This document shows, one piece after another, positions 1,122 through 20,946 of a DNA stretch of 64,000 bases. Position 1 is the first letter of the stretch. Each line of letters begins with the position of its first letter. The stretch is from Escherichia coli (GTDB taxonomy: Bacteria; Pseudomonadota; Gammaproteobacteria; Enterobacterales; Enterobacteriaceae): NCBI GenBank assembly GCA_902500205.1, contig GCA_902500205.1_4868.1. One strand, 5' to 3'. Below the pieces are notes generated by a model. It was not told the DNA's origin. It worked only from the letters and a program-made list of their open reading frames with translations, and did no database searches. Made by a program: the position numbers and the translations under genes.

Positions 1122-1793
1122 TTACATGCCGAGTGATTCGGACAATGTTTTTAAACCGGTGTAATCGCGCTTTTCAGCTAACTCACGGATTTGGCGTTTG
1201 TTATCTGCCATTGCTGAGTGCAACACCTGGTCGCGTGCAACAATAGCGCCCAACAACGCTTTACATTGGTCTACTGTAAACGGACTGTGCTTAGTATTCA
1301 GCGTATCGAGCCAGTATTCTGGTGCGGTATCTGCCTGAATGTATTGACCGAGGATGGTACGCGACGATTCATCGGCTTGAAAGTGACTACCTTCAAACTC
1401 GATATAACCATGACGCACATCTTCGTAGCGATGGTCAAGTTCCAACAGCATCTTCTGCACGTCTTCGTAAATGTAACGTGCGGTAGATTTCAGATTCCCG
1501 CGAATTTCGTCGAGGTCAATCTCCAGCACATTAGCAATAAACTCTTTCGTGCGTTTCAATGTGAAGTTAGCTTCAATCTCCGACATCTCATACAGCTTCA
1601 TGCGTGCCAGGGCTTCTTTATCAGACATCCCTTCGATGAGATGGTAATGGAGTAATGCACAAAATCCGGTACGACCCTGATCCTGCGCACCGATTCGTTC
1701 CATGAAATTGCCGTGACGATCAATCGGCAAATCACGCTGGAAATAACGGGCGCGGATCTCTTCGTTCGTTAAGCTTTTGTCAGTAACAGACAT
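1122..1793 (-). CDS. Hypothetical protein (223 aa), last gene of the radical SAM cluster operon
   Basis: ORF track; co-oriented with and overlapping the upstream gene; no motif recognised. Confidence 0.55.
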   Translation of the reverse strand: MSVTDKSLTNEEIRARYFQRDLPIDRHGNFMERIGAQDQGRTGFCALLHYHLIEGMSDKEALARMKLYEMSEIEANFTLKRTKEFIANVLEIDLDEIRGNLKSTARYIYEDVQKMLLELDHRYEDVRHGYIEFEGSHFQADESSRTILGQYIQADTAPEYWLDTLNTKHSPFTVDQCKALLGAIVARDQVLHSAMADNKRQIRELAEKRDYTGLKTLSESLGM

Positions 1794-2335
1794 TCGTCCT
1801 CCTCAATCAGGCCAAGTTCTAACAACAAACCGAAGTCCAGCATCTGGAAGTCCTGATCGAGGTTACCGGCCCACAACAGAGAAATGTTGTGTTGCTCTTC
1901 TTCTTCCAACTGCGGGAGCAGGTGTTCTTCGAAGATTTGACGTTCTGTGTAATAAGCGTCAACCGGGTTATTGGAGCGTAAGTTACGAATACGCATCCGC
2001 GGGAATGACAAGCCCAATGCCACTAAACTTTCAGGACTGGCTTCATCAATAGAGTGACGTAGCAGTTCGATTTTGTGGCGTGGGTATGCAAGCAGTCGCT
2101 TCTCAAAGCCAGGGTTGCGCTTTTCGATTTCCGCGACAGACTCGTGTCCTTTCTCAACGCAGTAGACCGGGATCATCACATTCAGCCCGTATTTAATCAA
2201 CAGGCTTTGGATTTCATCAGTGAAGTCTTCCCCTGCCACAATTGCGTGCACATTGTACAGCTTGCTTTTGCGCAGGAAGCGATCGACCAAGTGCAGTTTA
2301 CGCTTCGTAAAATTGTGAATCAGTATTGACTTCAT
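1769..2335 (-). CDS. Hypothetical protein (about 189 aa), cluster-associated
   Basis: ORF track 1769..2413; start moved to internal Met (MKSILIHNF) which has a GGAG RBS about 7 nt upstream by my reading; no motif recognised. Confidence 0.5.
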   Translation of the reverse strand: MKSILIHNFTKRKLHLVDRFLRKSKLYNVHAIVAGEDFTDEIQSLLIKYGLNVMIPVYCVEKGHESVAEIEKRNPGFEKRLLAYPRHKIELLRHSIDEASPESLVALGLSFPRMRIRNLRSNNPVDAYYTERQIFEEHLLPQLEEEEQHNISLLWAGNLDQDFQMLDFGLLLELGLIEEDECLLLTKA

Positions 2336-3626
2336 TCTGGGCTCCGTTTTGTAATTTTTCTGCTTCAGCACGTTGGCGTACACAACGTGAACAATAGCAC
2401 ATGGATTTATCATGCAAATCTGATGCGCGGGTCGTACCAGTTTTCTGATACCAATATTCCGCCGCCATCAGCTTCGCAGTAGTCCAACCACACTGACGAC
2501 GTTCGGCGTGATACGCTTTACGGTCTTCCAGTGTACCTTCACCGTTTTCGTACGATGCTGCTGCGCAGCTACCGCAACTGTGTTTCATCGGACACCCTAA
2601 ACAGGTTTCTGGGTAGTTGGTGTACTGCGTTTGAATCTCTTCTAACAGCTTACCACCGTCCAGGCTCACAAACTCACGACCGACCAGTTCTGCTACAGCA
2701 GAACGGGAAGTTACCGTGGACATGAAACGGTTACAACCGTAAATCTTGCGATCAAAGCCGAGACAGGTCATGTGCGTCAACGTACCGCAGTACGGTTTCA
2801 GGCGTTCTGGGTCGAGACGAACAGAGTCGTCATGTAAGAGTTTGTCACGCCAATCCGGGTCCCAAGTTGCCATAAAGTTCAGGCCATCCGGGATGATGTG
2901 TGTAATCGTGTTACGCGGGTTGGTGTGCAGACCCTTCTCAATCCAGTAGTCCATCACGTCCATCATCTGGTTCGCGATATCCAACGCCATATGGCGCGGC
3001 AGGATATCTTCGTACGTTACGTTACCAGAGATGGTACCACCGCCGGACATGTCAATTAACGATTTCATGCTGGCGGCATAGTGCGGCAATGTATCGATCG
3101 TAAACGTCGCCTTTACGCCCAGCTCAGCGATGCCAACGCTCTTCAGGTAATTGTAACCGCGTACCGCAGCTTCGTACGACCCTTCACGCGTCGTGGTAAA
3201 GATACGATATTTGTCATGGACTTCAGGTAAACCATCGATGGAGACCCCAATAGACAGTTTGTCTTTCCAGCGCTCGATAATTTCTTTGTTCAGCGGTCGG
3301 TCCAGAAGTGTACCGTTCGTGGAGATACTGAACATATACGGGCGATTGTGTTCTGCGCATAACTTCTCTGCGGTTTCAAAGGCCGCCAAAAGAAGTTTAG
3401 GCTGCATGAACGGCTCACCACCGATGATATCGATGATGACTTCAACGTTCGGGATATCTTTATCGCGCTCGAAACAAGCGTGGATAAAATCAATCACGTC
3501 TGCTACTTTGTTGTTACGCGGATATTTACGCTCGTAGCAGTATTCGCAGTCCAGGTTACATGACAAGTTAGTCACAACCTGATACGTGCGTGGTGTGTAC
3601 TGGATTTGCTGTTCGCTATTACTCAT
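2298..3626 (-). CDS. Radical SAM enzyme with SPASM-type C-terminal domain (442 aa)
   Basis: N-terminal CNLDCEYC (CxxxCxxC radical SAM cluster motif); C-terminal Cys-rich segment CLGCPMKHSCGSCAA and CYCSRC typical of SPASM auxiliary cluster domains; its start overlaps the stop of the upstream radical SAM gene. Confidence 0.85.
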   Translation of the reverse strand: MSNSEQQIQYTPRTYQVVTNLSCNLDCEYCYERKYPRNNKVADVIDFIHACFERDKDIPNVEVIIDIIGGEPFMQPKLLLAAFETAEKLCAEHNRPYMFSISTNGTLLDRPLNKEIIERWKDKLSIGVSIDGLPEVHDKYRIFTTTREGSYEAAVRGYNYLKSVGIAELGVKATFTIDTLPHYAASMKSLIDMSGGGTISGNVTYEDILPRHMALDIANQMMDVMDYWIEKGLHTNPRNTITHIIPDGLNFMATWDPDWRDKLLHDDSVRLDPERLKPYCGTLTHMTCLGFDRKIYGCNRFMSTVTSRSAVAELVGREFVSLDGGKLLEEIQTQYTNYPETCLGCPMKHSCGSCAAASYENGEGTLEDRKAYHAERRQCGWTTAKLMAAEYWYQKTGTTRASDLHDKSMCYCSRCVRQRAEAEKLQNGAQNEVNTDSQFYEA

Positions 3627-4533
3627 TGTTCGCCGCCCGTTTACGCTTAGCAGAAATTACACGGTTGATGTAGTTATACGCATCAACGCCGATAGAACGC
3701 GCCAGGCGATTACAGCCGACTTCCAATATCTCTGGCGCGTTCTGAATTTGCTCCTGCGTACCGTCGGCGTTAAGCCACAGCACTTCACTGCACGTGTTGC
3801 ACTCGGTATCGAACATTTTACTGATCGCAAGCCCACATTCAGAATCGTTCTGCATGTTAAGGCGTTCGATATTGTCGAGTATTTTCCAATACCCGTACAT
3901 GAAGTTCATGACGTGGTCTGGCGATAACGGTTTCGGCATCATCGCATCAAACAGCAACGACATACCACCTGGACGGTAATGATAGATTGCTCGGTGCAGC
4001 TCGATGAAATCTTCGTACCAGCGTTTATCGCCTAACTGGTCACGCGTCATCACACCCCAGGTGTAATAGTTGTCCAGCTCGTACAGCACTTCCAGCGCTT
4101 CGTGATTACCACCGTTTACAAAGTTCATAAACGGACGTTCCGACTTCTTGTAGCCGTCAATGGACACAAAGATAAGGTCGAACTGTTTCAGCAACGGCAG
4201 ATGTGATTTACGCATCTTTAAACCGTTGGTGTACATGTGATGACGGAGGTTCGGATGAGACTCCTTCAACTCATTCACGAAGTCTTCAATCTTGCGCTGC
4301 GCTAACAGCGGCTCACCGCCCGTCCAATGAATCTCACCGATATCCGGATTCTTCTCTAAAATCGAGAGAATCTCTTCACGTTGAAACTCACGAGAAGTAT
4401 CTTCTCTATCCATGTAATAAGCCCCTCCACAGAAGCTACAGTCTAAGTTACACTTAGAAGTTGCGACAACCGACAGAATTGACGGTTTGTCGTACAGTTC
4501 AGACGAGATCCTGGATTCTACTTGATCTGTCAT
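3619..4533 (-). CDS. Radical SAM enzyme (about 304 aa), second maturase-like protein
   Basis: CNLDCSFCGG radical SAM motif; C-terminal Cys motifs (ECG...ECNTC...GC) suggest a partial or twitch-like auxiliary domain. Track start 4569 is probably a non-ATG codon; internal ATG (MTDQVES) with GGAG RBS preferred. Confidence 0.8.
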   Translation of the reverse strand: MTDQVESRISSELYDKPSILSVVATSKCNLDCSFCGGAYYMDREDTSREFQREEILSILEKNPDIGEIHWTGGEPLLAQRKIEDFVNELKESHPNLRHHMYTNGLKMRKSHLPLLKQFDLIFVSIDGYKKSERPFMNFVNGGNHEALEVLYELDNYYTWGVMTRDQLGDKRWYEDFIELHRAIYHYRPGGMSLLFDAMMPKPLSPDHVMNFMYGYWKILDNIERLNMQNDSECGLAISKMFDTECNTCSEVLWLNADGTQEQIQNAPEILEVGCNRLARSIGVDAYNYINRVISAKRKRAANNE

Positions 4534-4555
4534 TGCAGGTTGCTCCAGTATATTT

Positions 4556-5443
4556 TTAAATATAATCAATGGCGAATAAAGGATCTTCGTCTACATTAGC
4601 GCCAGGCACCAGTAACATCGGGTCGTGATAGGCAGCTAAAATTTTGTTCAGGTCGGCATGTCTTTCGTTCAAGCGTTTCAAATCGGCCAACGTAACCGAA
4701 CGACTACGAATCTCAGAAACAGCTTCTGCTTCTTCTTTCGTTAAATCCACCTTCGTTAAGAGGAAGCTTACCAGCTTACTCAAATCCGCTTCTGTCGCCG
4801 GGTAATCCCCATATCGGGTTTGAACCAGGTGTTGCATCCACGGCTTACGAATACGTTTGGTGATTTCGAAATCGTCAGTCAGCGCATACCAGACAGAACG
4901 CTTTTTATCCCACACGAACTTATAGCTATACGCCATCATGTCCGCTAAACGGGTGATGCCGAGTTCTTTATATCCCTCGATATCGATGTACGGTTCGGTG
5001 TCGAAATACGTTTCCGTATCGGCAGGTACCAGTACAAAGTAGTAAGGGAATGAGCCCAGATAGTCCGGACTCCACCAACGGCGCGCCATCGGTTTTGCTT
5101 CGAGTTCGTCAAACGGTGTAAACATCAGTTCTAAATCGACACTGTTGTTCAAAATCCCTTCACTGAAGAAATACTTACCGTCGACTAACACGCCACGAGA
5201 GTTACCATCGCCGTTAAAGATAACGATGGCCTCTGCAACCATATCACGGATCTTAAACGTATTTTCTACGGTGTAGTTCTTCTTGTCGGTCAAGAAGCGA
5301 CCACGAACCTTTGGCCACTCACCAGGAATCTGTGCAATCAGTCTGACTTTGTCAGCGAGGTGTGCACGCACCGAATCTGGGGAAGATAGATGCAGCGGGT
5401 GGTTGAATGTGGTTTTATACGCAAGATGCAAATCGTTTTTCAT
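4556..5443 (-). CDS. Hypothetical protein (295 aa) between the precursor genes and the radical SAM genes
   Basis: ORF track; GGAG RBS upstream; no recognisable motif; position suggests an accessory or recognition role. Confidence 0.55.
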   Translation of the reverse strand: MKNDLHLAYKTTFNHPLHLSSPDSVRAHLADKVRLIAQIPGEWPKVRGRFLTDKKNYTVENTFKIRDMVAEAIVIFNGDGNSRGVLVDGKYFFSEGILNNSVDLELMFTPFDELEAKPMARRWWSPDYLGSFPYYFVLVPADTETYFDTEPYIDIEGYKELGITRLADMMAYSYKFVWDKKRSVWYALTDDFEITKRIRKPWMQHLVQTRYGDYPATEADLSKLVSFLLTKVDLTKEEAEAVSEIRSRSVTLADLKRLNERHADLNKILAAYHDPMLLVPGANVDEDPLFAIDYI

Positions 5444-5465: not shown

Positions 5466-5672
5466 TTATCGATTCCCCGCTCCACGGCTACAGCTTCCGC
5501 TGCAGGACCAGCTACACCCACCATTACAGTTATAGTGAGAAAGCGGTAAGCCAGCCAGGTTATTTGTGGTCGACACGGTGCCCTGGTTAGCGATATAGTT
5601 GTTTGCCTGTGCGGTTGTAATGTAACCTTCTGCCGTAACGAGACGGTTTCGAATAGTCTTGAGACTGATCAC
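5466..5672 (-). CDS. Cys-rich precursor-like peptide A (68 aa)
   Basis: GTG start with GGAGG RBS by my reading; N-terminus MISLKTIRNRL resembles paralogs B and C; short C-terminal core SHYNCNGGCSWSCSGSCS. Confidence 0.6.
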   Translation of the reverse strand: MISLKTIRNRLVTAEGYITTAQANNYIANQGTVSTTNNLAGLPLSHYNCNGGCSWSCSGSCSRGAGNR

Positions 5673-5687: not shown

Positions 5688-6092
5688 TTAGGAGTTAGGA
5701 CCTGAACAACCACCAGAGCACGCACCTGAGCAGTTTGCGGAGCAGGATTTACCACAACCCCCAGAACAGCTGCCTGTGCACGTGCCGCTACAACCACCAG
5801 AGCACGAAGAGCTACAGCCCGTGCAGCTGCTGCTACAGCCTGATACACAGTTTGCCGAACAAGTCGACCCACAACCGCCCGTAGCAGACCCAGTACATCC
5901 GCCAGAACAACTCGAGCAACTAAAAGAGCATGTGCCACCACAGTCATAGTGCGAACGGCCTTGACCTGCGAACAAGTCGGCGTTATTCGTAGCTTTATTG
6001 CGAATGTAGTTTTGCACATTCGTGGTGTTCTTTAAAGCGTTTGCATCGATCGCGTTTAATCGGTTATTCAGTTCTTTTAATCCAATTGCCAT
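5688..6092 (-). CDS. Cys-rich precursor-like peptide B (134 aa)
   Basis: Leader-like N-terminus MAIGLKELNNRL; junction motif SHYDCGGTCSFSC followed by about 20 Cys in C-x3-C repeats with S/G/T/A/N spacers. Confidence 0.7.
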   Translation of the reverse strand: MAIGLKELNNRLNAIDANALKNTTNVQNYIRNKATNNADLFAGQGRSHYDCGGTCSFSCSSCSGGCTGSATGGCGSTCSANCVSGCSSSCTGCSSSCSGGCSGTCTGSCSGGCGKSCSANCSGACSGGCSGPNS

Positions 6093-6360
6093 TTAATCCC
6101 CCTTAGCGACCTGAACAGCCACCGGAGCAGGCTCCGGAACAACTGGAAGAACATGAGCCACCGCAACCACCTGTGCAGTTACCGGTACAGCTACTACTGC
6201 AACCACCAGAACAACCAGAGCAACCAGAACAGTTACCGCCACACGTCGAAGAACAGCTACCGATACAAGAAGCAGAACAGCTTCCTGAACAGCTCGAACA
6301 GCCATGCGAGCAACCGTTAGAGCACGTCCAAGAACATGTCCCGCCGCAATCTAGCTGTGT
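5700..6360. repeat. Low-complexity codon repeat tracts (Cys/Ser/Gly codons) inside precursor genes B and C
   Basis: Reiterated short codon units create long spurious ORFs on the opposite strand and in other frames (track ORFs 5669..6019, 6093..6305, 6173..6508). Confidence 0.6.
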
Positions 6361-6495
6361 TTTCGTCCAACCCCCAAATCGGTCTGCCGCGTTATGGGCT
6401 TTAGAGGCCACTTGCGCGTCGATACGGGGGCCTGTCGCCATGTTAGCTTCGACTATCTGGACGCGGTTTCTGACGTCTTTAATAGATATCGCCAT
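6103..6495 (-). CDS. Cys-rich precursor-like peptide C (130 aa)
   Basis: Leader-like N-terminus MAISIKDVRNRV; junction motif DCGGTCSWTC followed by about 21 Cys in C-x3-C repeats. Confidence 0.7.
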   Translation of the reverse strand: MAISIKDVRNRVQIVEANMATGPRIDAQVASKAHNAADRFGGWTKTQLDCGGTCSWTCSNGCSHGCSSCSGSCSASCIGSCSSTCGGNCSGCSGCSGGCSSSCTGNCTGGCGGSCSSSCSGACSGGCSGR

Positions 6496-6516: not shown

Positions 6517-6553
6517 ACGAGCGGACTATGTCCATAAACATAGTCCGGCTCGT
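6517..6553 (-). terminator. Strong hairpin (terminator or attenuator or RNA processing site) between the fibre operon and the precursor genes
   Basis: About 14-bp stem with one bulge (acgagcggactatg / catagtccggctcgt), followed on the transcript by a U-rich stretch and then the RBS of precursor C. Confidence 0.45.
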
Positions 6554-6560
6554 AAACAAG

Positions 6561-7763
6561 TTACTTAGTACCCGCTTCAGCTTGAACATCGTCGCGCGAG
6601 GTGAGGTTGTTGTTAACGTGAACAGCAGCCTGCACAACACCGCCATACTGTTTATGGAGGTAATTCGGGTGTGGGTTATCCGCAGCCGCATGGTTCGCCA
6701 GATTCTGGTTTGCCTGCGAAATTGCGTTGGTGTTGTTTACAACCTGAGTTTTAAGACTGTTGATTTGTCCTTGCAGGTTATCAATTTGCTGTTGGAAGTC
6801 TTTGCCCTGATTCTCAAGATCCGTGACACGCTGATTTGTTTCATTCAGCGCAGACTGAAGATCGTTAACCTTCTTCTGTAATTGCAACACCAGAGAATTA
6901 AGGTTAGCTAATGCTAACGACATTTTCTGGTAATTTTGAGCAACCACGTTAAGCTGGTCGTTCCACGCGGCTAACGAAGCCACAATTGCATCGATGCGTT
7001 GCCCCAACGCTGTGTCTGCTGCTCTTAAGTCGCCGATATCTTTGATAGTGGCGTCAATGGCAGTCTGTACACTTTGAATCAGAGCACGAATCTCCGTCTC
7101 CGTCAGGCCATTAACCTGATGAATGTCGAGATTGTGTACGTTACCTTCGGCGTTGATGTGGGTATTTAAGGCGTCGAGGAAGTCGTTTTTCAGACCACCC
7201 AGAATACCTTTAATTTCTTCCAGCTGTACTGCAGAGCCGGAGTTAATCGCATCTTTAATCCCCGCGAGTACGGTAATGATATACTCAAAACCGTAGATAT
7301 CGCCAAGGTCTTTATACGTCGGTGCGGACGGGAACGTATCGGGTACGTTCCGAAGATCCTTGAAGTCCACCACGCGGTCTTCAATTTTCAACGACGCAAT
7401 CGCTTGTCGGATGCCTTCGACGTTCGCGGACTGAAAACCACCGACAACTTGCGCAGAGACTTCGATATCAGTAGGAATGGCCGTGTTAGTTACCACCACA
7501 CCCATGACCACTTCGCGGTTCTTGGTCATTTTCTGATATGCAGTATGTGCAAAAATCAGCTCGTAGTCTGTACCGCGTTTGTACGGGTAGACACCTGGTT
7601 TATTCGCAGCCGCCAAGCGGAAGGTATCCGCGTAGAAAGCTCCGTCAGGAAATGCAAAAGCCCGGTTAACTTTACCAGAACCTAACGTAATACGCCGCGT
7701 AACGGCGTTCGACGTTAATGTCCCGGTAAGGTCGAGCGGGTACTGATAAATGATTTCGGCCAT
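6561..7763 (-). CDS. Tail-fibre-like protein (about 400 aa) with coiled-coil region
   Basis: Shares the N-terminal module (..RGTDYEL..) with the three large fibre proteins; central heptad-like Q/N/L-rich segment; C-terminal NPHPNYLH motif. Start moved to internal ATG with GGAG RBS. Confidence 0.65.
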   Translation of the reverse strand: MAEIIYQYPLDLTGTLTSNAVTRRITLGSGKVNRAFAFPDGAFYADTFRLAAANKPGVYPYKRGTDYELIFAHTAYQKMTKNREVVMGVVVTNTAIPTDIEVSAQVVGGFQSANVEGIRQAIASLKIEDRVVDFKDLRNVPDTFPSAPTYKDLGDIYGFEYIITVLAGIKDAINSGSAVQLEEIKGILGGLKNDFLDALNTHINAEGNVHNLDIHQVNGLTETEIRALIQSVQTAIDATIKDIGDLRAADTALGQRIDAIVASLAAWNDQLNVVAQNYQKMSLALANLNSLVLQLQKKVNDLQSALNETNQRVTDLENQGKDFQQQIDNLQGQINSLKTQVVNNTNAISQANQNLANHAAADNPHPNYLHKQYGGVVQAAVHVNNNLTSRDDVQAEAGTK

Positions 7764-7810: not shown

Positions 7811-10800
7811 TTAGGTACGGAACATAAGATTGACCTGGATAATATCAGGCTGTTGCCATCCTCTCTCGTTCACCCAATCGTGCGCAATCGTTAACGTAAG
7901 ATCATCGCCATCCCACGCCACGATCGGCGGTGGGAATAAACCCTGAGCGCCCGTGGTAACAACCGGAATTGCACCCGCCACATCCACAAACGTGTAGCTA
8001 CGGCTGTTCAAAACAACTGGTGTGCCGTAGGTCTCTCCCCCCAATGGTAAGATTTGAATCTTACTATCCGAAAGATCGGTGGTGATTGGTAGTCCCCCCG
8101 CGTCCGTGAAAAGCCAAGAGCAAATATGCTGGTTGGCCATCTCAAGCGCTGGGGAACTCAACACAGCAGAGAAAGTAAACGTACATGGCACGCCTGCGGG
8201 CAGAGAGTGCTGTTTGTGATACACGGTATGTGGTGTTGGCATTAGCACTTCTGGATTTTCTTCAATGTTAACATCCTTACCTTCCGCCTCGACGTTGTAT
8301 AAAAATCTATCTACCGTATCCCATGGGGCGATGTTGACATTAAAGGTCGTTTCTACTCCCGGTGTACCTGGGACGACGAATTTACTTTGTATCACCACTA
8401 TCATCATTCCTGAGGTCGGAGAGAAAGCAGGCGTAGGGATACCCACCCACTCCATTCCCAACGATGCCGCTTCACCGTTCTCATCGGCCGTTACCGTCGC
8501 AATTGTTGTAGGATGTTTCCAAAACGCCCCCGACTTGTTTGCCTGAGTAAACGCCGGCAAAGTTTTCAAGCCTTCGAAACGTTTGGAGACCATCGGTTTA
8601 CCGCGACGCTGTGCGTCAGATACGGTATAAAGCAACTGACTATCCAGATAGCCTTTCGTAGCATCGATAGACAAAGGACCCATCGCTTCTTTACGCAATG
8701 GTGCCAGTCTGCCCGTTGCCGCATCCCTTCCCACTTCCACATCATGCTTATTCTCAACCGCCGCATGTTCCAACAGTTGTTTCACCGCCCCCAATCGCTT
8801 AGCATGTTCGACGTTAGTCTCGACGACTCGCGACGAGCCCGTTTTAACATACCCGATATAGAGTTCCGTTTCAGTGTCTGGATGTTGAATCACGTCCATT
8901 ACGTACTTCGGTGTACCATTTTCTACCTTGGCGTGCAGGTAGAATGTCCGGTTCTGATGGTTTGTTGGAAATGCTGCGCTGAGGTCAATATACCACGTAG
9001 GCAGCTTATAAGTGCTCGAGCCGAAACGCAGGTCAACTTCCTCAGTCACATATACCAGCCAACCTTCAGCTGTTTCCACACCAGCAATGACAACCGATTC
9101 AGTCGGGCCACTAAAATTAGGAGCCGCGACAAAATCTCTCGACGACGTTGCGATACCACCACAATAGACGTAGTCGAGAGATGAGTTGTGTAGCATCACC
9201 TGATCACGATGAGCCAGATAAGCTGGGCTGACTGGAGTGTGTGACGGTGCCATACGTCCAACGCCGTGTGGAGCAGAAGAACGCGTCCAGGTACCATTAG
9301 ACAGCGTAAGACCAACAGCGTAGTTAAGCGCACCCAAGTCGCCAATCAGGCGCAAGGTTAACGTGTGTGGAAGATACAACCCGAACTGCGTACCATCTAC
9401 CGACACCAGTGTAGGTTGTCCCGGCCGGCGTGTTTTTCCTCCCGTTATCTCACCCAACGTAGCATAGTTCAAGTCATAGTCGAGGTTGTTATAGAAGTCA
9501 AACAAAGCCAATATCGCTGCGGGGAATGTTACCTGCCCGTTGCTGATTGTTGGTTTCAGTGTAAAGTAGTAGATATCCAACACGTTAACGTTGTTCACAG
9601 TACGCGTACATGCTACTTGTGCTAACGTGAGCGGTGTGGCCGTACCAATGCCGATGAACCAAACGGAGAACAATGCCTTTCCTGCGTTATTTGCGGCAAG
9701 GATAAATTCCGAAGCATAACCATTCGCAGCGCCTGCCGGTGCACCGTCGATGATCATCTGCTTCATCTTATTCCATTCGGCTTGTGACAGCGTCAACCGA
9801 TCGGCATGAATCGTGAAAGTGCCAGAAACGTTGTGGTAAGGGAATGTTTCTGGCCCTGTGCAATACCAGCCGTTTAACTCTGTACCAGGCGACGCCGGTG
9901 TAACAATGTGGCACATCTGCGACAGATTCTCGTACGTGGTAGAATCCACTACACGACGATTGTTAGTTGGTCCATACCCCGCTTTACCTGAGTAAGTGGT
10001 GTTCGGATCAAACTCAACTTCAATTGCCAAACGGGAACGTGGCTGTGACAACCAGATAAGTCTGGAATTCGCTCCCAGAGTCAGCGGATACGCCATACCC
10101 AGCTCGTAGATAGAACCACGACCTTGGTTTAACGTTACCGCACTAAACCTTCTGGCAGTGAAGTTGTAGTCGCACGACAGGTACTCGTACCAACTCACAC
10201 CGTCGTCTAACGTGGTAATCGTGACAATTGGCATTAGGTCACGATCGCCGGCATGTCCTTGCGAAACGATATATTTGTCTTGCGATGTTGCAAAGGTTTG
10301 GTTATTAGCTTGACCTTCGCCCCACTTCCGGCTCGGAATCCCAATCTCAGCACCACCGTTATAACGAACCGCGGTAAGATCAGCCACAATAGGGAATCGA
10401 TCAGCCCCTTCCAGCGTTACCGTCATTGAACTGCAATCAACAACAAAGCTTGACACCCATTGTTTAAAGCTAATCGTCTGCCCTGTGCTGGAGGCAAACC
10501 AGACTGTTGGCGTTAAACCAACACGAAATTTCAGCCCATCAACACCAATCGCGTGATTACACTCAGGACCATGTACAAAGTTGATTGCATTGTTCCACTT
10601 CGCTAACGCGTCTGCGTAGATCTGTGTAACTGGTGCTGGGAGCGCATCGGAAGGTGCACGTTTCTGTCCCTGTCGCAGATAAACGTTTTCACCCGACGTT
10701 AATATCCCGCCTGTTAACGCATCCGCCACAAACGTGTTGCTACCACCCGGATTAAGTTCGTTGAGTGCGATGCTACGCATACTCACGAAATAGTTACCGG

Positions 10801-12994: not shown

Positions 12995-13027
12995 TGCAAA
13001 CACTCCTAATCTGTAATAAAACGGAGA

Positions 13028-13088
13028 CCGCCCTCCCAATAACGGAAGGGCGGTTTACCTACGGACTACCCGCCCGTAGGCAGTCCGT
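13028..13088 (-). terminator. Inter-fibre-gene structured region, candidate partial terminator
   Basis: Two adjacent GC-rich inverted repeats (accgccctcc/ggaagggcggt and cctacgg/ccgtagg, with an alternative acggact/agtccgt pairing), then a U-rich stretch on the minus-strand transcript. Confidence 0.4.
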
Positions 13089-13089: not shown

Positions 13090-16000
13090 CTAAGAGGCCC
13101 ACTCACCCGAGTTGTTGCCTTCGTTTCTACGTTCAGTATCCAACGTTTGTAAAATCCAATCCCATGTCCTGGTGGGGATGTGGAATGGATTACGCTTCTC
13201 AATGAGAATCGTTTCGCCACCAGTGCGAAGTTCCACCGGTGTCGTTTCAGTAATCACGAACATCGGATTACCACTACTACCTACGCCATTAATAGTGAAC
13301 TTCGCTTGCAACGGCGGCACAGAACCTTCCGGAGGCACGAACACGATGTGAATTGGCTGCATCGGTTTCGTGCGGGCAAGAGTCCTGGATATCTGAACAG
13401 CTGTTGTCGATGCACTGAAAGGTATAACATTACCCGGAATTTTCTCACTACCCACGATGATATATCCAGGGTAGTTAGAGAGCATTGTCCCATTTACCGA
13501 CACAAAACGCTCAGTTTGAGTTGGGCGATAAGCCCGCATAAAGCCGTACTTCCATTCACCACCGTTAGACGTATAGTCTGCAGGAGCCGACTCAAGTAGC
13601 GGAGCACCACGTTTCTGCAGCCCTTTATAAAACGGCGCTGGGAGTTTACCGTTCGGTGCAAGTTCCGGATAACCCTCACTTGCAGCAGACATCGTGATGT
13701 ATTCCGTAACCGGGTGATCAACGTTATCTCCAAATGACGCAAAAGGTACCGTTGTTACTGTCATCTCCTCGTGGTCGGAAGACTGTCTATCTGGCGTCCT
13801 TTCAATATACGACTCAAACAGTGAACGTAAATAATGGAAACGATTTATATCCACATCTGAGATGATCGGCTGCATCAAACCGTGGTTAATAGTCACGTTG
13901 TCTCGAGTTTCAATACCGGAAACGTGGATGGCTAGCGCCCCACCTTTAAAGTAATCGATCGCATCAAACGGAATGTCGTATTCCATTTCGTAAACCTGCA
14001 CCAGCGGATTGGCTATCAACTTAGAAACCATTGAGATGCGCAGTACCTGCGTATCAACAATGTATCGATAACGTACAAGCCAACGATCTCCAAGCGGCGC
14101 AAGCTCACTATCGGTATGAACCGAAAGAAAATCTAAACACTCGGTAGATTGGCTCGTCAGGTTTTTAATTACCCTCGGATTTTCAAGCACCTTATTTGTA
14201 ACACTGCCCTGCGTGGTCGAGATGATGCCTCCAGTTGCTTGGTTATAAGGAGACCTGATGAAGCCACAATTCAATTCTGGACGATTGCCACTCCATCTCA
14301 GTACCCTAGTCATGCTTTTATCATCTGCAGACGGGGCCATGAAGTTTAATGTGATATCGCGAACGCGAACTGTTTGTGCTTCCGACAAATCAACATCGAC
14401 CACCACAGAACCTTCAAACGTCGCCATCCCTTTTTCTTTCGGGTTGCTTGGTGTAAACCAGCAGTACGGTGATGCGCTTTCTGTGGAGACAACCGCTCCA
14501 ACAAACACTAGGCTTGAAATGGTACTATCAAATTTATAATCGAATAACCCTCGGTCTAATCGAATATAGTGGTTACCAGAAACTGGACTATTAGGGTACG
14601 CATAAAGCCACTGTTTAGGCAACGGATCGACTTTGTTTAGCGGTAACATTTTTGGGTTATCCGTCAACGACCAGTCGGCATTACTCACTCCGTGCGCCAG
14701 ACGTGTTTCGAAGTGCCGTTTAAGTTCGGACGCCATGCCAAAATCAAACGTCGTTTCAAACTCGTAAGTCGTACCTGCAACCAATCCCGTCTCGGGTACA
14801 TCAATATGTCCGATATAGCCGCGTTCCAAGTTAATACCTTCCGTGTCCACAATAGGTTCGGCGCGCGAATATAACGCATCGGTTATCATGTTCACATAGA
14901 GGTAATGCCTTAAACCATTCGGCGTCTTAACAAACTCCTGCAGGCGGGCAACTTTGGTGTTTTTATCCGAGGCCCCAACCGCAAAGTCACCGTCGTAAAT
15001 TGTGAAACGAATTGCGGCTGCTTTAGCGCTATCGTTACACTCGGCACGGAATGCTAAGCAGTGTTGCTTCCACCCCTCCTTGACAGTCGCCTCCAGATAC
15101 CCCGCTTCTGTAATACCCGCACCGATAATTTCACCGTCCAGATAAACAGAAACAGCACCACCGCCACGAACCCAAATCCGTAGTTTACCAGAGTCGCAAC
15201 GAACCCACGTTTTCGCCAAGAGGTTAACGACTGACAAATCACCCATTCCGGTTGTCGTTAAACCAATCTGCGCACCGTAGTTCGTTTCCGGGACGGCAAC
15301 CTCAAACCCACTAAAATCAATACCGTCACCGATATTAATTACCGCGTTCTGCCACGTTCTTTCCATACGGTTATCTGGAGAGAACCACTGGAACATCGGG
15401 GTGGTTTGCAGGTCTATCGAACCAGATACCGTCCCCTCTTTACGTGCACCATTTAACAGATAGAAATAATTCAAATCCGTTACGGCGAGGGTGGTACGTG
15501 TAGATCCCACAGTCCAAGTCTTACCACGCACAGCGGCAAAATCGGTCACGGAATCCTCTTTCGCGTTTGCTAGCGCAGCTGCAACTACGTCTAAACGTTT
15601 TGACAAATCGTTCAGAACGTTCGGGGTAACGCCGCGATTACCCGACAAGCCGTTTAGGTTGGTAGAATATCGAGCGATACCGGGAACTGTTTGAGAAGCC
15701 GTTGGGATCTGTAAATCGGCGAAGTTGTGATGGTGACCTTTATCACTAAGACCGGTAACTGCTTCTGCCAACGCATCAGAAAGTGGTTTATCGACGTCAG
15801 CTGTGTTATCAGCCAAGTCTAAACCTAAATCCTTTTTCGTCAGCGTTCGACTACCAGTGTTCATCGGCTGGTTATTCAGCAGCGTTGTCTTCCTGACGTA
15901 CGAAGACAGGTCGCCCTCATACGGCAAAAGCGCCGACGGGGTGACTGCTTGTCCCTTGACTACATCGCTCGGCTTATCAGTCAGCGTCACAACGCCTGGT

Positions 16001-17220
16001 TCAGAGGTCGTCGCGGGTTTGGCTGTGACCTTCCCGGTGACGGGATCGGCTTTTGACCCTTTACCCGTGAAAGTGATGCCGTTCACCCCGCTAATGTACA
16101 GTTTGTTGTCATCCGGGTCAACGGTACCACCGCCGGTACCAGGGTCTTGTTGATAGCCCATGAGAGCAGTTGTGGTCAGTAACGTCGTGCCATTAAGCGT
16201 CAGCTTATCCATCCCCAAGGCACTGCCAGTCGACTCAATACGTAATGTATTGATGCCTGCTTTCCACTCCATAAACCGGACGGTTCCAGTAGTGTCGGCA
16301 TACCCACACGCCAACACAACAGAGCCATTAGATTTAAGAGTGAATGCCTCAGCAGAGAACACAATTTCGGATTCACCAGCAGGAGAACGGAACAGGGCAC
16401 GAGTACCAGATATCGTCGCGTTAAACACCCCTTTGGATTCTTTCGATACCCATTTAGAAATGTACTTGTCGATATCCGATTGTTGCAGACCCAGTGCACG
16501 GACCTCGCTGGTTAACTGACGCAACGTCTTTCCATACGCCAGGAAAGTATCTGGCGTTTTCAGGTTGACAGGATGCGCACCGGCCTGCGCCGCGGTAGTC
16601 CCATGAGGGTTAGTCGACGCAATGTGTCCGGGGTAGTTAAATGTGGCGATTTCAGTTCCTAAGCCCAAAACCGCATCTTTCAGCTCAGTAAGCTTTTCAC
16701 GAATCTGCTCGTTGGCCGCCCCGGCATCTAACTCCACATCATGCACTGCAGAGGCAACATACTTTTTATTCAGCATGTCTGACCAAGCTACCGCTGCAGG
16801 GGTGGCTGGGTACAGGGAAGGTCGATTACCTAAAAGCAGCCAATCTGCAGCCGTTGGATTGTTGAGTGCCTTAATTAGCTCATCTAACATCTCAATCAAA
16901 CCACTGTAAAACGTACCCCCGAGCATCTGGCCTTCAAAGACCACCGCACCACGCAGTTTAGGGTTAATAAGATGCACCCCGCAAAACACCGGGGTCGTCA
17001 CCGAGTCGTCCAACGGTGTTAAAGCATACTCCAGCTCATAGTCCGTCCCGCGGGTAAGCGGTATGGACGAGCCGGCGAGCCTTACCACCAATCCTTCGAA
17101 AAACGGGCGATGATCTAGCATCACCACCCGATCGTTAGGATTGTCGGAGTCGATGATACGTTCCTCGATGAAGTGACACTCAGGATTTACACCCCGAGGA
17201 TCGTAAGGATACGTTTTCAT
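13090..17220 (-). CDS. Large tail fibre protein (1376 aa)
   Basis: Shared N-terminal module (RGTDYELEY); GHHHNFADLQIP and VPGIARYST motifs; GGAG RBS upstream. Confidence 0.7.
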   Translation of the reverse strand: MKTYPYDPRGVNPECHFIEERIIDSDNPNDRVVMLDHRPFFEGLVVRLAGSSIPLTRGTDYELEYALTPLDDSVTTPVFCGVHLINPKLRGAVVFEGQMLGGTFYSGLIEMLDELIKALNNPTAADWLLLGNRPSLYPATPAAVAWSDMLNKKYVASAVHDVELDAGAANEQIREKLTELKDAVLGLGTEIATFNYPGHIASTNPHGTTAAQAGAHPVNLKTPDTFLAYGKTLRQLTSEVRALGLQQSDIDKYISKWVSKESKGVFNATISGTRALFRSPAGESEIVFSAEAFTLKSNGSVVLACGYADTTGTVRFMEWKAGINTLRIESTGSALGMDKLTLNGTTLLTTTALMGYQQDPGTGGGTVDPDDNKLYISGVNGITFTGKGSKADPVTGKVTAKPATTSEPGVVTLTDKPSDVVKGQAVTPSALLPYEGDLSSYVRKTTLLNNQPMNTGSRTLTKKDLGLDLADNTADVDKPLSDALAEAVTGLSDKGHHHNFADLQIPTASQTVPGIARYSTNLNGLSGNRGVTPNVLNDLSKRLDVVAAALANAKEDSVTDFAAVRGKTWTVGSTRTTLAVTDLNYFYLLNGARKEGTVSGSIDLQTTPMFQWFSPDNRMERTWQNAVINIGDGIDFSGFEVAVPETNYGAQIGLTTTGMGDLSVVNLLAKTWVRCDSGKLRIWVRGGGAVSVYLDGEIIGAGITEAGYLEATVKEGWKQHCLAFRAECNDSAKAAAIRFTIYDGDFAVGASDKNTKVARLQEFVKTPNGLRHYLYVNMITDALYSRAEPIVDTEGINLERGYIGHIDVPETGLVAGTTYEFETTFDFGMASELKRHFETRLAHGVSNADWSLTDNPKMLPLNKVDPLPKQWLYAYPNSPVSGNHYIRLDRGLFDYKFDSTISSLVFVGAVVSTESASPYCWFTPSNPKEKGMATFEGSVVVDVDLSEAQTVRVRDITLNFMAPSADDKSMTRVLRWSGNRPELNCGFIRSPYNQATGGIISTTQGSVTNKVLENPRVIKNLTSQSTECLDFLSVHTDSELAPLGDRWLVRYRYIVDTQVLRISMVSKLIANPLVQVYEMEYDIPFDAIDYFKGGALAIHVSGIETRDNVTINHGLMQPIISDVDINRFHYLRSLFESYIERTPDRQSSDHEEMTVTTVPFASFGDNVDHPVTEYITMSAASEGYPELAPNGKLPAPFYKGLQKRGAPLLESAPADYTSNGGEWKYGFMRAYRPTQTERFVSVNGTMLSNYPGYIIVGSEKIPGNVIPFSASTTAVQISRTLARTKPMQPIHIVFVPPEGSVPPLQAKFTINGVGSSGNPMFVITETTPVELRTGGETILIEKRNPFHIPTRTWDWILQTLDTERRNEGNNSGEWAS

Positions 17221-17232: not shown

Positions 17233-20200
17233 TTAATCACGAATAATAAGTGTTCGACCTGACGTGTTTTTCGGATTGAACGTCATCATCTTGGACGGGT
17301 GTGCCACCAGTGGAATTTTACCTGTATCCACTGGTCGGAACGAACTGTATGAATAGTTGCACATCGCGCTGTTCATCTCATTGATCGTTGAACCTGCATC
17401 CACCACGCCAGTAAAGAATCTTGCGCGGTTTAAGCCGGAATAGTTAATCGCATAGTCAAGGAACGTGGCGTAATAACGATTCTTTGTCGGCATCGTGTTC
17501 AGGTTAGCGTAAGTCAAACGCGCTTCTGTGTCGGAACTAAACAAACCACCCACGCCGTGATAAATCGGCGTACTCGGATCGGTAATCAGTTTCGTCAAGT
17601 CGATATAGTCAGGACGGAGACGGGTAGACAAATCCTCAGTCCACGACTCGCCGGTCGACTGCAAGGTGTATTTCAGCGTCTTTGTTGTCGCGGTTAGCGT
17701 CAGCTCAAAGTTAATCGTTTTGGAATCGATGTTAATCGTTCCCACGAACGAAATACCGTCCGCTGTTCGCGCGTGGCTGAAACGCACCGATGGATTAAGT
17801 GCCGTCCAGTCATGGCCGGCACCAGTAACGCCATTCAGACCAATAACAACCTGTGCAGCACGTCCGTAGTTAACCGCGATTCCCGCATACGTGCTCACGC
17901 CGCCTGGAGTGGTAATACGTCCTGCGGTGCGTGCGACGAGTACAGAAATACGGTGCATGAACGTGGCCGAGTGATGGCAACACCCAATTACCGTTTCTAG
18001 CACACTGTCCGCTGTTGCGGTTAAAGGTGTCCACGTTGCGGTAATGCCGTTATTCTGGAACATCGGGAATGTGTTGTGGACAAAACGATAATCGGTTACA
18101 GATAAACTGGTTGTTTTAAACGTCCATTTATCAGCAGCCGGATCGTAGTCCGCTTTCAACATAGGTGTATAGCTGCTAGCCTGCGCGTAACGCCAATCGG
18201 CATCTATACGTTTTGTACCCGGTGCGCCCGTGGACCACACAGGCCCGCCAGTACCGTAAGTAAATCCGAATTCAGCTTGCGTCATGCCCCGACGAATATG
18301 GGCGTTATCATCCTCGATATGCTCGCCTAATTCACGGAACTCACCTAAACGCGTCACGTTGCGGATTTCTACAAAAACCACACCGGTTTCACTGGTGATG
18401 ATGGAACCTATTTTGGTCATCGTCTCAGTTTCTGCCGTGTTTGGATTTTCGTAGATAATGTACTTGCCGTCATCGCCCGCCGCGTCAACATACACGCCAA
18501 ACTCAGCATCTTCGTGCGTCGCTGGGAATAGCTCCGCCAAGTTAAATGTGGAGAGAGGTACTTTGTACTCGCGACCAACGAAATAATCGTTCGCTTTAAT
18601 AGTAACCATCCAGTCGGTGTAAGTGATGCCGTTTTCAATGATGTCCGTGCCGGGTAAACCGTAACGAATAATGTTGATTGAAGCACCAGAGTCGACTGTC
18701 TTCGCAACCTTCTCTATCTCTGTGATGGCGTCCGCCTGTCGGATGACCTCACCGCCGTCTAATGCCAGCGTGGCATCGTCAACCGCGGTGCCGAACTGTA
18801 CTAAACCGAACTCCGTCGTTGTTGCACGCTTAATCCCGAGCGCAGCAGGAGTGTGTGTGTGACCGACGACTGCGTACTTGTCCAGCTCAGCTCGTTGGAG
18901 CGGGGAAATCGGCAATTGCACATCTGGGATGTTCTGTACGTTCGATAAGCCGAAGTTAGTTTTATCGATGTAAATAGAACTCGTCAGTGGCATGTCGTTG
19001 ATGTACGATTTAACAGCAACCAACTTGCCCGTAAACTGCTGATCCAATTTCTTGATGAGTGCCGGCGTTGCGGCCAAGTCCTCACGATCACCGAATTCAG
19101 TAGCCAACAAACGGACAGCCATCAGGCCAAGGTCGTCGGACTCCGGTGGAACAAAAGTACAAATGAACGGAACAGACTGAATACCGTTGCCGTTAATGGT
19201 TACAGTAGCTGTGGATGTTCCGTAAAACAGTCCATCACCACCTGACTCGTTACCCGGCAGGTACGGCCCGACCGTAGTAGGGTCCAATAGTTTCTTACCG
19301 TTGAACTCCAATCCACGGGAATCCGGATAAAGGATGAGTTGGTTAGCCCCACCTTGCCATGTAATCGGATTGTTCCCGGCGTTAACGGTTTGCGAATCGC
19401 GTCCAATAAAACGGATAACCTTCGGGTCAACCGTGAATTGTGCACCCACTCCTTCAGACTCATCGGTACCCACTGCTGACGTTATCGAAGTCAGGCCAGG
19501 CTTCATACCGAAAGTGCCGTTGATAGACTGTGCAGCCGCCGGTAAACGTAAAAGCTTATTCGCCAGCGTTGACAGTTTCGGCAACAGATTGTTAACGTAA
19601 TCTGTCAGCTGCGGTTGCGTTTTTCCGTATACCAGTGTCGCGTCCGAAGCAATACCGTTATTCTCCAAAGCACGGATTGCGCCCCACGAATCGCGATGTG
19701 GGTTATCCTTGCGCGGCACGTGCGTATGTGCCGGTGCATCACGGTACAGCTTATCGACAATCTGGTGATATTTTACCAGCAGCTGGTACACGTCGTTGTT
19801 AACGTCAGGTGCCGGTGCGCCTGGTAATGAACGAATCTGGACGTAATCGTTCTCACCTGCCCACCAGTTTAGGTTGACGCCCGATTTAAACTTCAACCAT
19901 TTTGCGACATCAGTTTTCTGATACCCTGGTGCAAATTCGCTCGGTGGGTTGTCAACGTTAAAGCTGTAGTTAACGGTTTGCTTGCTTGTTTTAACGGTAA
20001 TGTCGTAAACGCCGTTACCTTCGCGTCTGACCACGCTAAGCTCAATATCACCCGCCAACTCGGTATCGGTCAGGCCAGTCGTCAACGTATAGCTGTAATT
20101 AGACGAACCAGAACCAATCGCCGTCGTTAAGGTAAGATAAATCGCGCGTTGCTTCAACTGAAGACGCAGGATACTTGTCCCACCGTTTGCGTAACAGAGC

Positions 20201-20946
20201 ATCCAATCGATCAACTCGCCTGGGTTTAACGTTGTTTCCGGTGGAATGCTCGGTAAACGGTGTTTTACCGCTAACGAATACGCATTGAACGTCGTGTTCT
20301 GGTAAGATAACGAATAACGACGACGAGACGCGTTATACGTGTAGCCGCCAGTACCGTCGTACGTCGCATACTGCTCGGATGTGATAAGCGTGACACCGGC
20401 GCGATATTGAAGGTCTAACGTGTTACGAGCAATCGGGTCAACGCGACTGATCGCTTCACCGAGCTTAGCGCCAACCGCAACAATGGCTTCCATCAACTCG
20501 GATTCGCCACGCCAGTTTTCCCAGTCGAACTTAATATCGACCGGTGGGAAATATAAATCCCCAATGACGTTATCCCATTGGCAGTCCACGGGATAGCGAT
20601 CTTTATTCGCTTCTCGTTCTGCGGCGATCATTTCTGCAGTGGCTTCACCGATGCCAATTGCGTGGTAATCGAGTGTAAAGCCACTCTGATATTTCGGGTT
20701 GGTAATCCACACACCACCATGACAAACATGGCCAGTGCGTGCCATGCCCGTAACGTACGCATGGGTGATGACGTAATCATCACCTAATGTTAATTTCTTG
20801 CCGCCACTCTTGACCACCAGGGATGTGGTATAAAAGGGGGCGTGTGCGGGGAACAACATCCGGTACTTAGTACCGATCGGCGTTACCGCTTCACCGGTCT
20901 GCATATTCCCCGGTTCTTGATAGTGCGGGTCAGGGACGACAGCCAT
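17233..20946 (-). CDS. Large tail fibre or baseplate-proximal fibre protein (1237 aa)
   Basis: Shared N-terminal module (LGDDYVITH); AHTHVPRKDNPHRDSWGAIRAL and GHTHTPAALGIKRATTTEFGLVQFGT motifs; GGAG RBS upstream; first gene of the minus-strand operon. Confidence 0.7.
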   Translation of the reverse strand: MAVVPDPHYQEPGNMQTGEAVTPIGTKYRMLFPAHAPFYTTSLVVKSGGKKLTLGDDYVITHAYVTGMARTGHVCHGGVWITNPKYQSGFTLDYHAIGIGEATAEMIAAEREANKDRYPVDCQWDNVIGDLYFPPVDIKFDWENWRGESELMEAIVAVGAKLGEAISRVDPIARNTLDLQYRAGVTLITSEQYATYDGTGGYTYNASRRRYSLSYQNTTFNAYSLAVKHRLPSIPPETTLNPGELIDWMLCYANGGTSILRLQLKQRAIYLTLTTAIGSGSSNYSYTLTTGLTDTELAGDIELSVVRREGNGVYDITVKTSKQTVNYSFNVDNPPSEFAPGYQKTDVAKWLKFKSGVNLNWWAGENDYVQIRSLPGAPAPDVNNDVYQLLVKYHQIVDKLYRDAPAHTHVPRKDNPHRDSWGAIRALENNGIASDATLVYGKTQPQLTDYVNNLLPKLSTLANKLLRLPAAAQSINGTFGMKPGLTSITSAVGTDESEGVGAQFTVDPKVIRFIGRDSQTVNAGNNPITWQGGANQLILYPDSRGLEFNGKKLLDPTTVGPYLPGNESGGDGLFYGTSTATVTINGNGIQSVPFICTFVPPESDDLGLMAVRLLATEFGDREDLAATPALIKKLDQQFTGKLVAVKSYINDMPLTSSIYIDKTNFGLSNVQNIPDVQLPISPLQRAELDKYAVVGHTHTPAALGIKRATTTEFGLVQFGTAVDDATLALDGGEVIRQADAITEIEKVAKTVDSGASINIIRYGLPGTDIIENGITYTDWMVTIKANDYFVGREYKVPLSTFNLAELFPATHEDAEFGVYVDAAGDDGKYIIYENPNTAETETMTKIGSIITSETGVVFVEIRNVTRLGEFRELGEHIEDDNAHIRRGMTQAEFGFTYGTGGPVWSTGAPGTKRIDADWRYAQASSYTPMLKADYDPAADKWTFKTTSLSVTDYRFVHNTFPMFQNNGITATWTPLTATADSVLETVIGCCHHSATFMHRISVLVARTAGRITTPGGVSTYAGIAVNYGRAAQVVIGLNGVTGAGHDWTALNPSVRFSHARTADGISFVGTINIDSKTINFELTLTATTKTLKYTLQSTGESWTEDLSTRLRPDYIDLTKLITDPSTPIYHGVGGLFSSDTEARLTYANLNTMPTKNRYYATFLDYAINYSGLNRARFFTGVVDAGSTINEMNSAMCNYSYSSFRPVDTGKIPLVAHPSKMMTFNPKNTSGRTLIIRD

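Follow-up and report, generated by a model that had tools for sequence, protein, structure and literature searches.

A putative radical SAM maturation module for CXXX-repeat proteins in the tail-fibre gene run of an SPN3US-like jumbo phage

Why should genes for small Cys-rich proteins and radical S-adenosylmethionine (SAM) enzymes lie at the end of a run of phage tail-fibre genes? The question is raised by a 64,000-nucleotide stretch of Escherichia coli assembly GCA_902500205.1 (contig GCA_902500205.1_4868.1; the whole stretch is referred to as the window), in which region 1122-6495 encodes three such proteins, here called P1, P2 and P3, together with two radical SAM enzymes and partner genes. 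Megablast analysis of positions 1000-8000 showed 98-99% identity over the full length with Escherichia phage vB_EcoM_EC001, Salmonella phage SPN3US and many Seoulvirus genomes. By sequence identity the window is that of an SPN3US-like jumbo phage, and the gene names gp160 to gp171 were carried over from the SPN3US annotation. The best-supported reading of region 1122-6495 is a phage-borne maturation module for CXXX-repeat proteins that is functionally tied to the gp170-gp167 apparatus encoded upstream. The key result, as judged from gene content and protein families, is that the same module is found in tail-fibre slots of unrelated phages. The genes of the region are as follows.

6103..6495, minus strand: P1, a 130-aa CXXX-repeat protein, unannotated in SPN3US (phrog_6085, E 9e-41)
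5688..6092, minus strand: P2, a 134-aa CXXX-repeat protein (open reading frame and translation; phrog_6085)
5466..5672, minus strand: P3, a 68-aa short paralogue that keeps the N-terminal region and the C.G.CSW motif and has few Cys
4556..5443, minus strand: gp165 homologue of 295 aa, conserved in the module as an accessory protein and without recognisable relatives by fold
3619..4569, minus strand: gp164 homologue, a radical SAM enzyme with the motif CNLDCSFC (PF04055, E 1e-15)
2298..3626, minus strand: gp163 homologue, a radical SAM/SPASM enzyme with the motif CNLDCEYC and eight conserved C-terminal Cys (TIGR04115, 3e-36)
1769..2335, minus strand: gp162 homologue, clade-specific, with orthologues in phages CR5 and Kwan that are 37-41% identical
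1122..1793, minus strand: gp161 homologue with a DUF4376 domain, encoded by the final gene of the run (PF14301, E 1.6e-8)

In P1 and P2, an N-terminal region of about 50 residues is followed by the C.G.CSW motif and then by Cys at every fourth position among Ser, Gly, Thr, Ala and Asn. The Cys-repeat segment is about 80 residues long, and the number of consecutive Cys at a spacing of 3-5 residues is 21 in P1 and 15 in P2. The junction L-x-G-x(4-5)-Y-x-C-x-G-x-C-S-W is conserved in all three proteins, which belong to or resemble phrog_6085. Alignment of 16-17 orthologues showed that the Cys columns were near-invariant and that the repeat length was kept. All scores against the TIGR04114 repeat model were below its cut-off of 20 bits (P1, 19.6; P2, 17.1; a third score, 13.7), and P0005, a protein 59% identical to P2, had a precomputed match to PF27846. 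Asp and Glu do not occur in the repeat cores of P1 and P2, so the acceptor pattern Cys-X3-Asp/Glu of the ranthipeptide maturase PapB is lacking from them. The AlphaFold2 (AF2) monomer of P2 had N-terminal helices at residues 5-18 and 23-31, and the predicted confidence (pLDDT) of its repeat region was about 35-43.

Predicted tryptic peptides include VQIVEANMATGPR, IDAQVASK and FGGWTK for P1, and LNAIDANALK, NTTNVQNYIR and ATNNADLFAGQGR for P2; VQIVEANMATGPR, LNAIDANALK and NTTNVQNYIR are examples from the N-terminal part. As a separate observation, assemblies of more than 200 isolates of Salmonella enterica and E. coli had the exact P3 sequence on contigs of about 240 kb; genomes of SPN3US-like phages therefore travel with sequenced isolates, as a carrier state, pseudolysogeny or contamination.

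The best NCBIfam family of gp163 was TIGR04115, "radical SAM peptide maturase, CXXX-repeat target family" (3e-36), followed by PapB (1e-32), and TIGR03906 was also matched (3.8e-15). The score remained below the curated TIGR04115 cut-off, and gp163 is therefore taken to represent a distinct, phage-borne sub-lineage. Its CNLDCEYC motif occupies residues 23-30, and alignment with distant homologues showed that C280, C288, C298, C342, C345, C351, C354 and C379 were invariant; both the CX3CX2C radical SAM motif and the SPASM auxiliary-cluster Cys are thus present. The nearest solved structure was that of CteB (5wgg, 3e-10), a thioether-forming enzyme. No N-terminal extension with a recognition element (RRE) of the kind known from post-translationally modified peptides of ribosomal origin (RiPPs) was found in gp163, since the motif begins at residue 23 and RRE-bearing profiles begin to match at about position 85-106.

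The true start of gp164 is probably ATG 4533 or TTG 4569, in agreement with the N-terminus of a paralogue found at locus L009. The SPN3US_0164 annotation (795 nt) begins downstream of CNLDCSFC and is hence truncated at the 5' end. The predicted fold of gp165 was confident (pLDDT 89.6), and searches of PDB and BFVD with this model returned only its own orthologue and no PqqD-like match. No family match was obtained for gp162 in Pfam and NCBIfam scans. Scans of the cluster proteins with Pfam, NCBIfam, PHROG and PADLOC revealed no protease, ABC exporter or transporter, immunity or defence family. A role in defence or anti-defence was considered and rejected; PADLOC gave only generic radical SAM similarity to pVip.

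Loci outside the SPN3US group were found by searches with P2, scans with gp163 and gp165, and gene-context look-ups. The P2 search returned proteins in which a fibre-type N-terminal domain was followed by the same junction motif and by CXXX repeats. The arrangements were as follows.

L002-L005, T7-like podoviruses: fibre adaptor (PF03906, the adaptor only), small collagen-like protein, CXXX protein, gp165-like and radical SAM genes, then terminase
L026, L028 and L158, lambda-like siphoviruses: the module directly after the J-like central fibre
L029, a small myovirus: baseplate wedge, fibre N-domain protein, collagen-like plus CXXX protein, enzymes, then sheath
L025, a 213-kb jumbo contig: a fibre-like protein of 568 aa with CXXX repeats at its end, encoded immediately after the baseplate wedge
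L030-L044 and L078, a second architecture: a gp163-like enzyme and immediately after it a Cys-rich protein, beside Tal-like and collagen-like tail proteins

In the T7-like contigs, no other distal fibre or receptor-binding candidate was encoded between the adaptor and the terminase; the gp164- and gp163-like enzymes of L003 were fused. L158 encoded a 258-aa protein with classical HxH/YYT shaft repeats and a CXXX domain at its end, and L029 a 401-aa protein with collagen-like and CXXX repeats that matched tail-fibre PHROGs as well as phrog_6085. PHROG scans of P0006 and P0013 showed N-terminal tail-fibre phrog_5073 and C-terminal phrog_6085. The phrog_6085 match of P0006 started at profile position 8 and therefore takes in the segment that matches the leader-like N-terminus of P1 and P2. 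All of the fused proteins (L025, L029, L158, P0006 and P0013) matched phrog_6085, the family of P1 and P2, and the CXXX domain was always C-terminal in them; P1 to P3 consist of the neck-plus-CXXX part only. The Cys-rich proteins P0009-P0011, P0020 and P0024, which came from the P2 search and are comparable to those of the second architecture, carry PF27846.

Two details of these loci were recorded separately. Three consecutive radical SAM genes follow the gp165-like gene in L158 (8840-11668), so that a module holds between one and three enzymes, or a fused form of them. Collagen-like GXY and CXXX repeats lie side by side or in one chain in fibre proteins at L003 9632-9988 and L029 5300-6505, which suggests that the two repeat types are interchangeable shaft modules.

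Close full-length relatives of gp163 were essentially absent from 185,579 species genomes, in which almost all matches were to the generic radical SAM N-terminal part; L078 was the only match of the species-genome contig scan with a true Cys-repeat neighbour. Relatives of gp165 formed 49 clusters in 1.84 billion proteins. This distribution points to a phage-borne lineage. A profile of the junction motif was tried as a census of N-terminal fusions and was given up; it returned mostly short P3-like and CXXX-target proteins.

The original prediction raised the possibility that the modified peptides are virion or fibre components and not secreted antimicrobials. The module is built into fibre genes of unrelated phage types, and enzyme-cross-linked fibre parts are therefore likelier than secreted antibiotics. 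Clade synteny, recurrence in fibre slots, the C-terminal fusions and the lack of a protease, transporter or immunity gene all speak for that idea and give it strong comparative support.

Within the group of SPN3US, tblastn analysis with gp163 revealed 67 phage records. The 60 matches listed comprised 55 records of the SPN3US/phiEaH2/CR5/Wellington clade, all of which carry gp163, and five unannotated fecal or gut phage contigs. CR5 and Kwan had the same order (gp167, P1, P2, P3, gp165, two radical SAM genes, gp162, gp161), with three peptides of the same three types, and homologues of P1 and P2 preceded gp163 in 17 of the 17 clade loci scanned. Identity to CR5 was 65% for gp160 (head), 63% for gp163, 57% for P1, 55% for P2, 46% for gp167, 43% for gp165, 40% for gp164, 37% for gp162 and 32% for gp168. 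The gp161 protein is restricted to the same clade and diverges fast (33-34% identity in CR5). In some relatives with a gp163 that is 83% identical (L009, at 4542-5453, and also L023), an extra gp164-like radical SAM paralogue of 303 aa was located between P1 and P2.

Close relatives whose fibre genes run straight into the terminator without the cluster, which would have spoken against a link with the fibres, were not seen; only distant chimalliviruses lack the cluster. The alternative of a moron inserted at the end of the late operon is weakened by the presence of gp163 in all 55 listed clade records, by the synteny in CR5 and Kwan, and by a GC content that is not atypical. It is still conceivable at the deeper level, where the distant chimalliviruses are without the cluster, and the TATG hairpin upstream of P1 described below counts for moron-type regulation of its own.

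The fibre-like genes upstream of P1 and the genes that flank the run are listed here.

17233..20946, minus strand: gp170 homologue, 1237 aa, baseplate/tail-fibre candidate, paralogue family C (phrog_7557, "virion structural protein")
13090..17220, minus strand: gp169 homologue, 1376 aa, baseplate/tail-fibre candidate (phrog_8078; N-terminal module common with phrog_2163)
7811..12994, minus strand: gp168 homologue, tail protein (phrog_7449 and phrog_2163)
6561..7763, minus strand: gp167 homologue, a fibre N-terminal module followed by a long coiled coil (phrog_2163, E 2.5e-108)
493-1041, plus strand: gp160 homologue (head), flanking the run at its 1122 end
21014-22276, plus strand: gp171 homologue, flanking the run at its 20946 end

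The start of gp168 was set at ATG 12994 as in SPN3US, and its frame is open to TTG 13039. PHROG scanning showed that the N-terminal module phrog_2163 is common to gp167-gp170, and residues 230-375 of gp167 matched coiled-coil Pfam families. In SPN3US, gp167-gp170 are virion proteins and gp168-gp170 are baseplate/tail-fibre candidates (PMC5694885, PMC5105663); gp168 is a tail protein "expected essential" (PMC5105663), and gp167 was covered to 70% in mass spectrometry of the virion. The gp167 N-domain was found in 196 phage records, including phiKZ-like phages, Goslar, and Ralstonia, Serratia and Klebsiella jumbo phages. A 26%-identical match to this module (window 6561-7763) lies in Goslar NC_048170 at 19866-20498. 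Goslar DUF7941 proteins assemble into head-to-tail filaments at the peripheral baseplate (2026 preprint).

Open reading frame listing placed all long frames between 20946 and 1122 on the minus strand in one unbroken run, with plus-strand genes on both sides, as had been predicted. The order in the run is gp170-gp167 (virion fibre/baseplate), P1-P3, gp165, the radical SAM enzymes gp164 and gp163, and gp162-gp161. The predicted succession of four fibre-like proteins, Cys-rich peptides and radical SAM enzymes was therefore recovered, with three peptides and two enzymes. The predicted gaps of about 50 bp or less apply from P1 to gp161, where packing is very tight (10, 15 and 22 nt, then overlaps), but not to gp169-gp168 (95 nt, measured to ATG 12994) or gp167-P1 (65 nt). 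The bidirectional terminator proposed for the end of the run was also found, with a 10-bp GC-rich stem at 1081-1104 and T-runs on both strands; the strand run and the terminator are solid observations. Of the promoter region suggested near 20950, a 67-nt divergent intergenic region is indeed present, and the promoter itself remains putative. The predicted structures in the run are given below.

1081..1104, both strands: bidirectional intrinsic terminator, closing the minus-strand run and plus-strand gp160 (-27.5 kcal/mol, z -5.5)
6522..6547, minus strand: hairpin whose apex carries TATG, some 27-40 nt upstream of the start of P1 (-24 kcal/mol, z -4.5)
13027..13088, minus strand: two hairpins in the gp169-gp168 gap (hairpin scan; fold -27.3 kcal/mol, z -3.5)

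The whole gp169-gp168 gap folds at -48.5 kcal/mol. Its second hairpin, at 13027-13054, is followed by GUUUUAUUAC, a U-run, and by this sequence looks like a terminator. Folding predicted the strong hairpin of the gp167-P1 gap in 17 of 17 relatives. Its stem occurred in at least five different sequences, and its apical TATG (window about 6533-6536) was invariant. These results come from per-sequence folds, which were used because RNAalifold on a MAFFT alignment of the region upstream of P1 gave no structure, the 3' arms being out of register. Late transcripts made by the phiKZ non-virion RNA polymerase begin at the G of a TATG motif (PMC4666361). By analogy with that motif, the conserved hairpin may be a separate late promoter, an RNA processing site or an attenuator, and the cluster may have its own late start or processing/attenuation site. 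TATG-loop hairpins were rejected as a general promoter class of the phage, as only two were present in the 64 kb.

The other TATG-loop hairpin lies at 35325-35347 on the plus strand, and after it come TTTT, a ribosome-binding site (GAGGAG) and a small open reading frame starting near 35368; the hairpin is possibly the same kind of regulatory element. A recurrent type of terminator was also noted in the phage, with a stem of 9-10 bp, a loop (for example CTTCGG or CCCAAGGG) and then a T-run, several of them bidirectional (window 1081, 22284, 27292, 30404, 38652, 40177, 43257, 49001, 49998 and 59115).

These structures bear on the claim that the cluster is part of the fibre operon. Its physical contiguity with the fibre genes holds, and co-transcription of the two is possible; a single unit is put in question by the hairpin at 13027-13054 and by the conserved TATG hairpin before P1. 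One transcript of the whole 20-kb run, starting at a promoter near 20950 and ending at the 1081-1104 terminator, would agree with the unbroken polarity, the tight packing from P1 to gp161 and the position of the sole strong bidirectional terminator at the end. It is nevertheless considered unlikely, given a terminator-like hairpin with a U-run inside the 95-nt gap and the invariant TATG. A sigma-70 scan of 900-8000 gave 4 sites compared with 7.6 in shuffled sequences and is uninformative for this phage, since transcription in this phage group is carried out by the phages' own RNA polymerases.

Annotation errors affect what the published proteome of SPN3US can say about the cluster. P1 and P3 are missing from the SPN3US annotation, and SPN3US_0166 (gp166; window 5684-6019, minus strand) is an Ala/Val/Arg-rich frame lying over P2 in a different reading frame. 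CR5_157 and KWAN_183/184 are likewise wrong-strand or wrong-frame calls over peptide genes (L006 9377-9589; L007 9224-9985). The SPN3US virion list of 86 proteins includes gp160, gp167-gp170 and gp171-gp173 and none of gp161-gp166 (PMC5694885, PMC5105663). This list is silent on P1-P3, because P1 and P3 were unannotated and gp166 was called in the wrong frame. For the radical SAM enzymes, gp161, gp162 and gp165, it suggests that they are not virion components.

From these data it is judged somewhat probable that P1-P3 are fibre-associated structural proteins whose Cys-repeat undergoes maturation by gp163 and gp164 together with gp165, thioether cross-linking being the probable reaction, and that they are assembled with gp167-gp170. 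P1-P3 would be small fibre-type proteins made of an N-terminal helical "neck", the conserved junction and, in P1 and P2, the Cys-repeat segment. Late in infection, gp163, gp164 and gp165 would modify this segment, with gp165 acting as a novel-fold partner, perhaps a substrate-binding subunit. By analogy with the nearest characterised enzymes, the modification would most likely consist of intramolecular thioether cross-links arranged as a ladder. Once stapled, the rod or tip could join the fibre/peripheral-baseplate complex, possibly on the coiled coil of gp167. The wider proposal of an unrecognised class of tail fibre, in which a distal rod with Cys at every fourth residue is stapled covalently by radical SAM/SPASM enzymes and a novel-fold partner before assembly, is more tentative and falls slightly short of probable.

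Several findings weigh against P1-P3 being cross-linked fibre parts. None of gp161-gp166 appears in the 86-protein virion list, in which P1-P3 were not searchable. The chemistry rests solely on homology to CteB and PapB at 25-30% identity, gp163 reached 125.6 bits against the TIGR04115 cut-off of 350, and the Cys-repeat part was not folded with confidence by AF2. Distant chimalliviruses whose fibre N-domain is 22-32% identical lack the cluster (196 records compared with 67), which is therefore not required for that fibre type in general. With the conserved TATG hairpin between gp167 and P1, the cluster may have regulation of its own. For metagenomic contigs, gene neighbourhood amounts to association and not proof. 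P1-P3 are also small (68-134 aa) and formally resemble leader-plus-core RiPP precursors.

This last resemblance leads to a different explanation, in which P1-P3 are the precursors of a classical RiPP moron, are matured to free Cys-rich peptides and are only positionally adjacent to fibre genes; the peptides would be released at lysis or stay intracellular, with an antimicrobial, signalling or host-manipulating function. Small precursors in tandem followed by radical SAM/SPASM enzymes, PapB as the second-best family of gp163, the absence of gp161-gp166 from the virion proteome, the confinement of the cluster to one chimallivirus sub-clade and a hairpin with TATG that could be its own promoter are all in line with it. 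However, the cluster has no leader protease, exporter or immunity gene, gp163 starts its radical SAM motif at residue 23 without an N-terminal RRE, and longer fibre proteins contain, as an internal segment, a homologue of the "leader". Recurrence in the fibre slots of four other phage types with CXXX fused to fibre shafts, retention in every clade record listed and a core-like conservation of gp163 also disagree with a moron, and this explanation is regarded as improbable. Less probable again are P1-P3 as assembly-only or intracellular factors that are not retained in the virion, such as a scaffold or chaperone for gp167-gp170, a removable chaperone-like domain, or a metal/redox buffer for Fe-S enzymes. 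Intramolecular chaperone domains of phage fibres are usually C-terminal, which is where the fused CXXX domain always sits; the very high Cys content could bind metals, and P1-P3 are missing from the virion list, where they could not be searched. Yet three dedicated enzymes or partners would be costly for a transient protein, the T7-like contigs offer no other distal fibre candidate between adaptor and terminase, and near-invariant Cys with a kept repeat length are expected of a structural repeat.

Should the fibre-associated reading be true, it would mark the first use of RiPP-type radical chemistry to build a structural or host-recognition protein of a virion, a new role for RiPP-like enzymes and a first biological role for the orphan CXXX-repeat radical SAM target family. 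It would account for the two conserved radical SAM genes of SPN3US-type jumbo phages, and the module would span jumbo myoviruses, small myoviruses, siphoviruses and podoviruses. Thioether-stapled fibres could resist proteases, reduction and heat, and would be relevant to engineered phages and stable binding scaffolds. For SPN3US, a genetic model phage, virion proteomics data already exist, and the mis-annotated genes SPN3US_0166, CR5_157 and KWAN_183/184 are flagged here. In the literature searched, the pairing of CXXX repeats with radical SAM enzymes was already known as a bioinformatic family; its embedding in tail-fibre loci and its fusion to fibre shafts were not found and are apparently new. 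The same literature contained no radical SAM-dependent modification of a virion structural protein, no link of radical SAM/SPASM enzymes to tail fibres and no discussion of the SPN3US radical SAM genes.

Comparison with known systems showed the closest likeness to the CXXX-repeat/radical SAM system (TIGR04114, TIGR04115 and PF27846), which to our knowledge is defined only bioinformatically and has no known product or function. Both have Cys at every fourth residue; the best family of the adjacent phage enzyme is TIGR04115, and a P2 homologue carries PF27846, whose proteins bear the JGI name "CXXX repeat radical SAM target protein". The phage system differs in its sub-cut-off scores (125.6 compared with 350 bits, and 19.6 compared with 20 bits), in having two radical SAM enzymes with the novel-fold gp165, and in its fibre-type N-terminal region, C.G.CSW junction and tail-fibre locus.

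The ranthipeptide and sactipeptide maturases (PapB/freyrasin and CteB/SCIFF) share the radical SAM plus SPASM architecture with auxiliary-cluster Cys, and by analogy a common chemistry, in which a thioether joins Cys to a carbon of a nearby residue, is plausible. In contrast to PapB and CteB, the phage system has no Cys-X3-Asp/Glu pattern or acidic residues in the core, no RRE and no protease or exporter, and its CXXX substrates, where they are joined to fibre shafts, are up to 568 aa long. Collagen-like tail fibres are similar in their low-complexity repeats of small residues, and CXXX stands beside GXY or in one chain with it in L003 and L029; collagen-like phage fibres, however, need no dedicated modifying enzymes.

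The radical SAM/SPASM enzyme QhpD forms thioether cross-links in QhpC, a subunit of quinohaemoprotein amine dehydrogenase. As proposed for the phage proteins, a SPASM enzyme there cross-links a protein that remains a structural subunit and is not a free peptide, and TIGR03906 was among the gp163 matches; the substrate family and the cellular context are different, and QhpC has no repeat architecture. For covalent cross-linking within a virion, the precedent is the isopeptide chainmail of the HK97 capsid, which forms autocatalytically.

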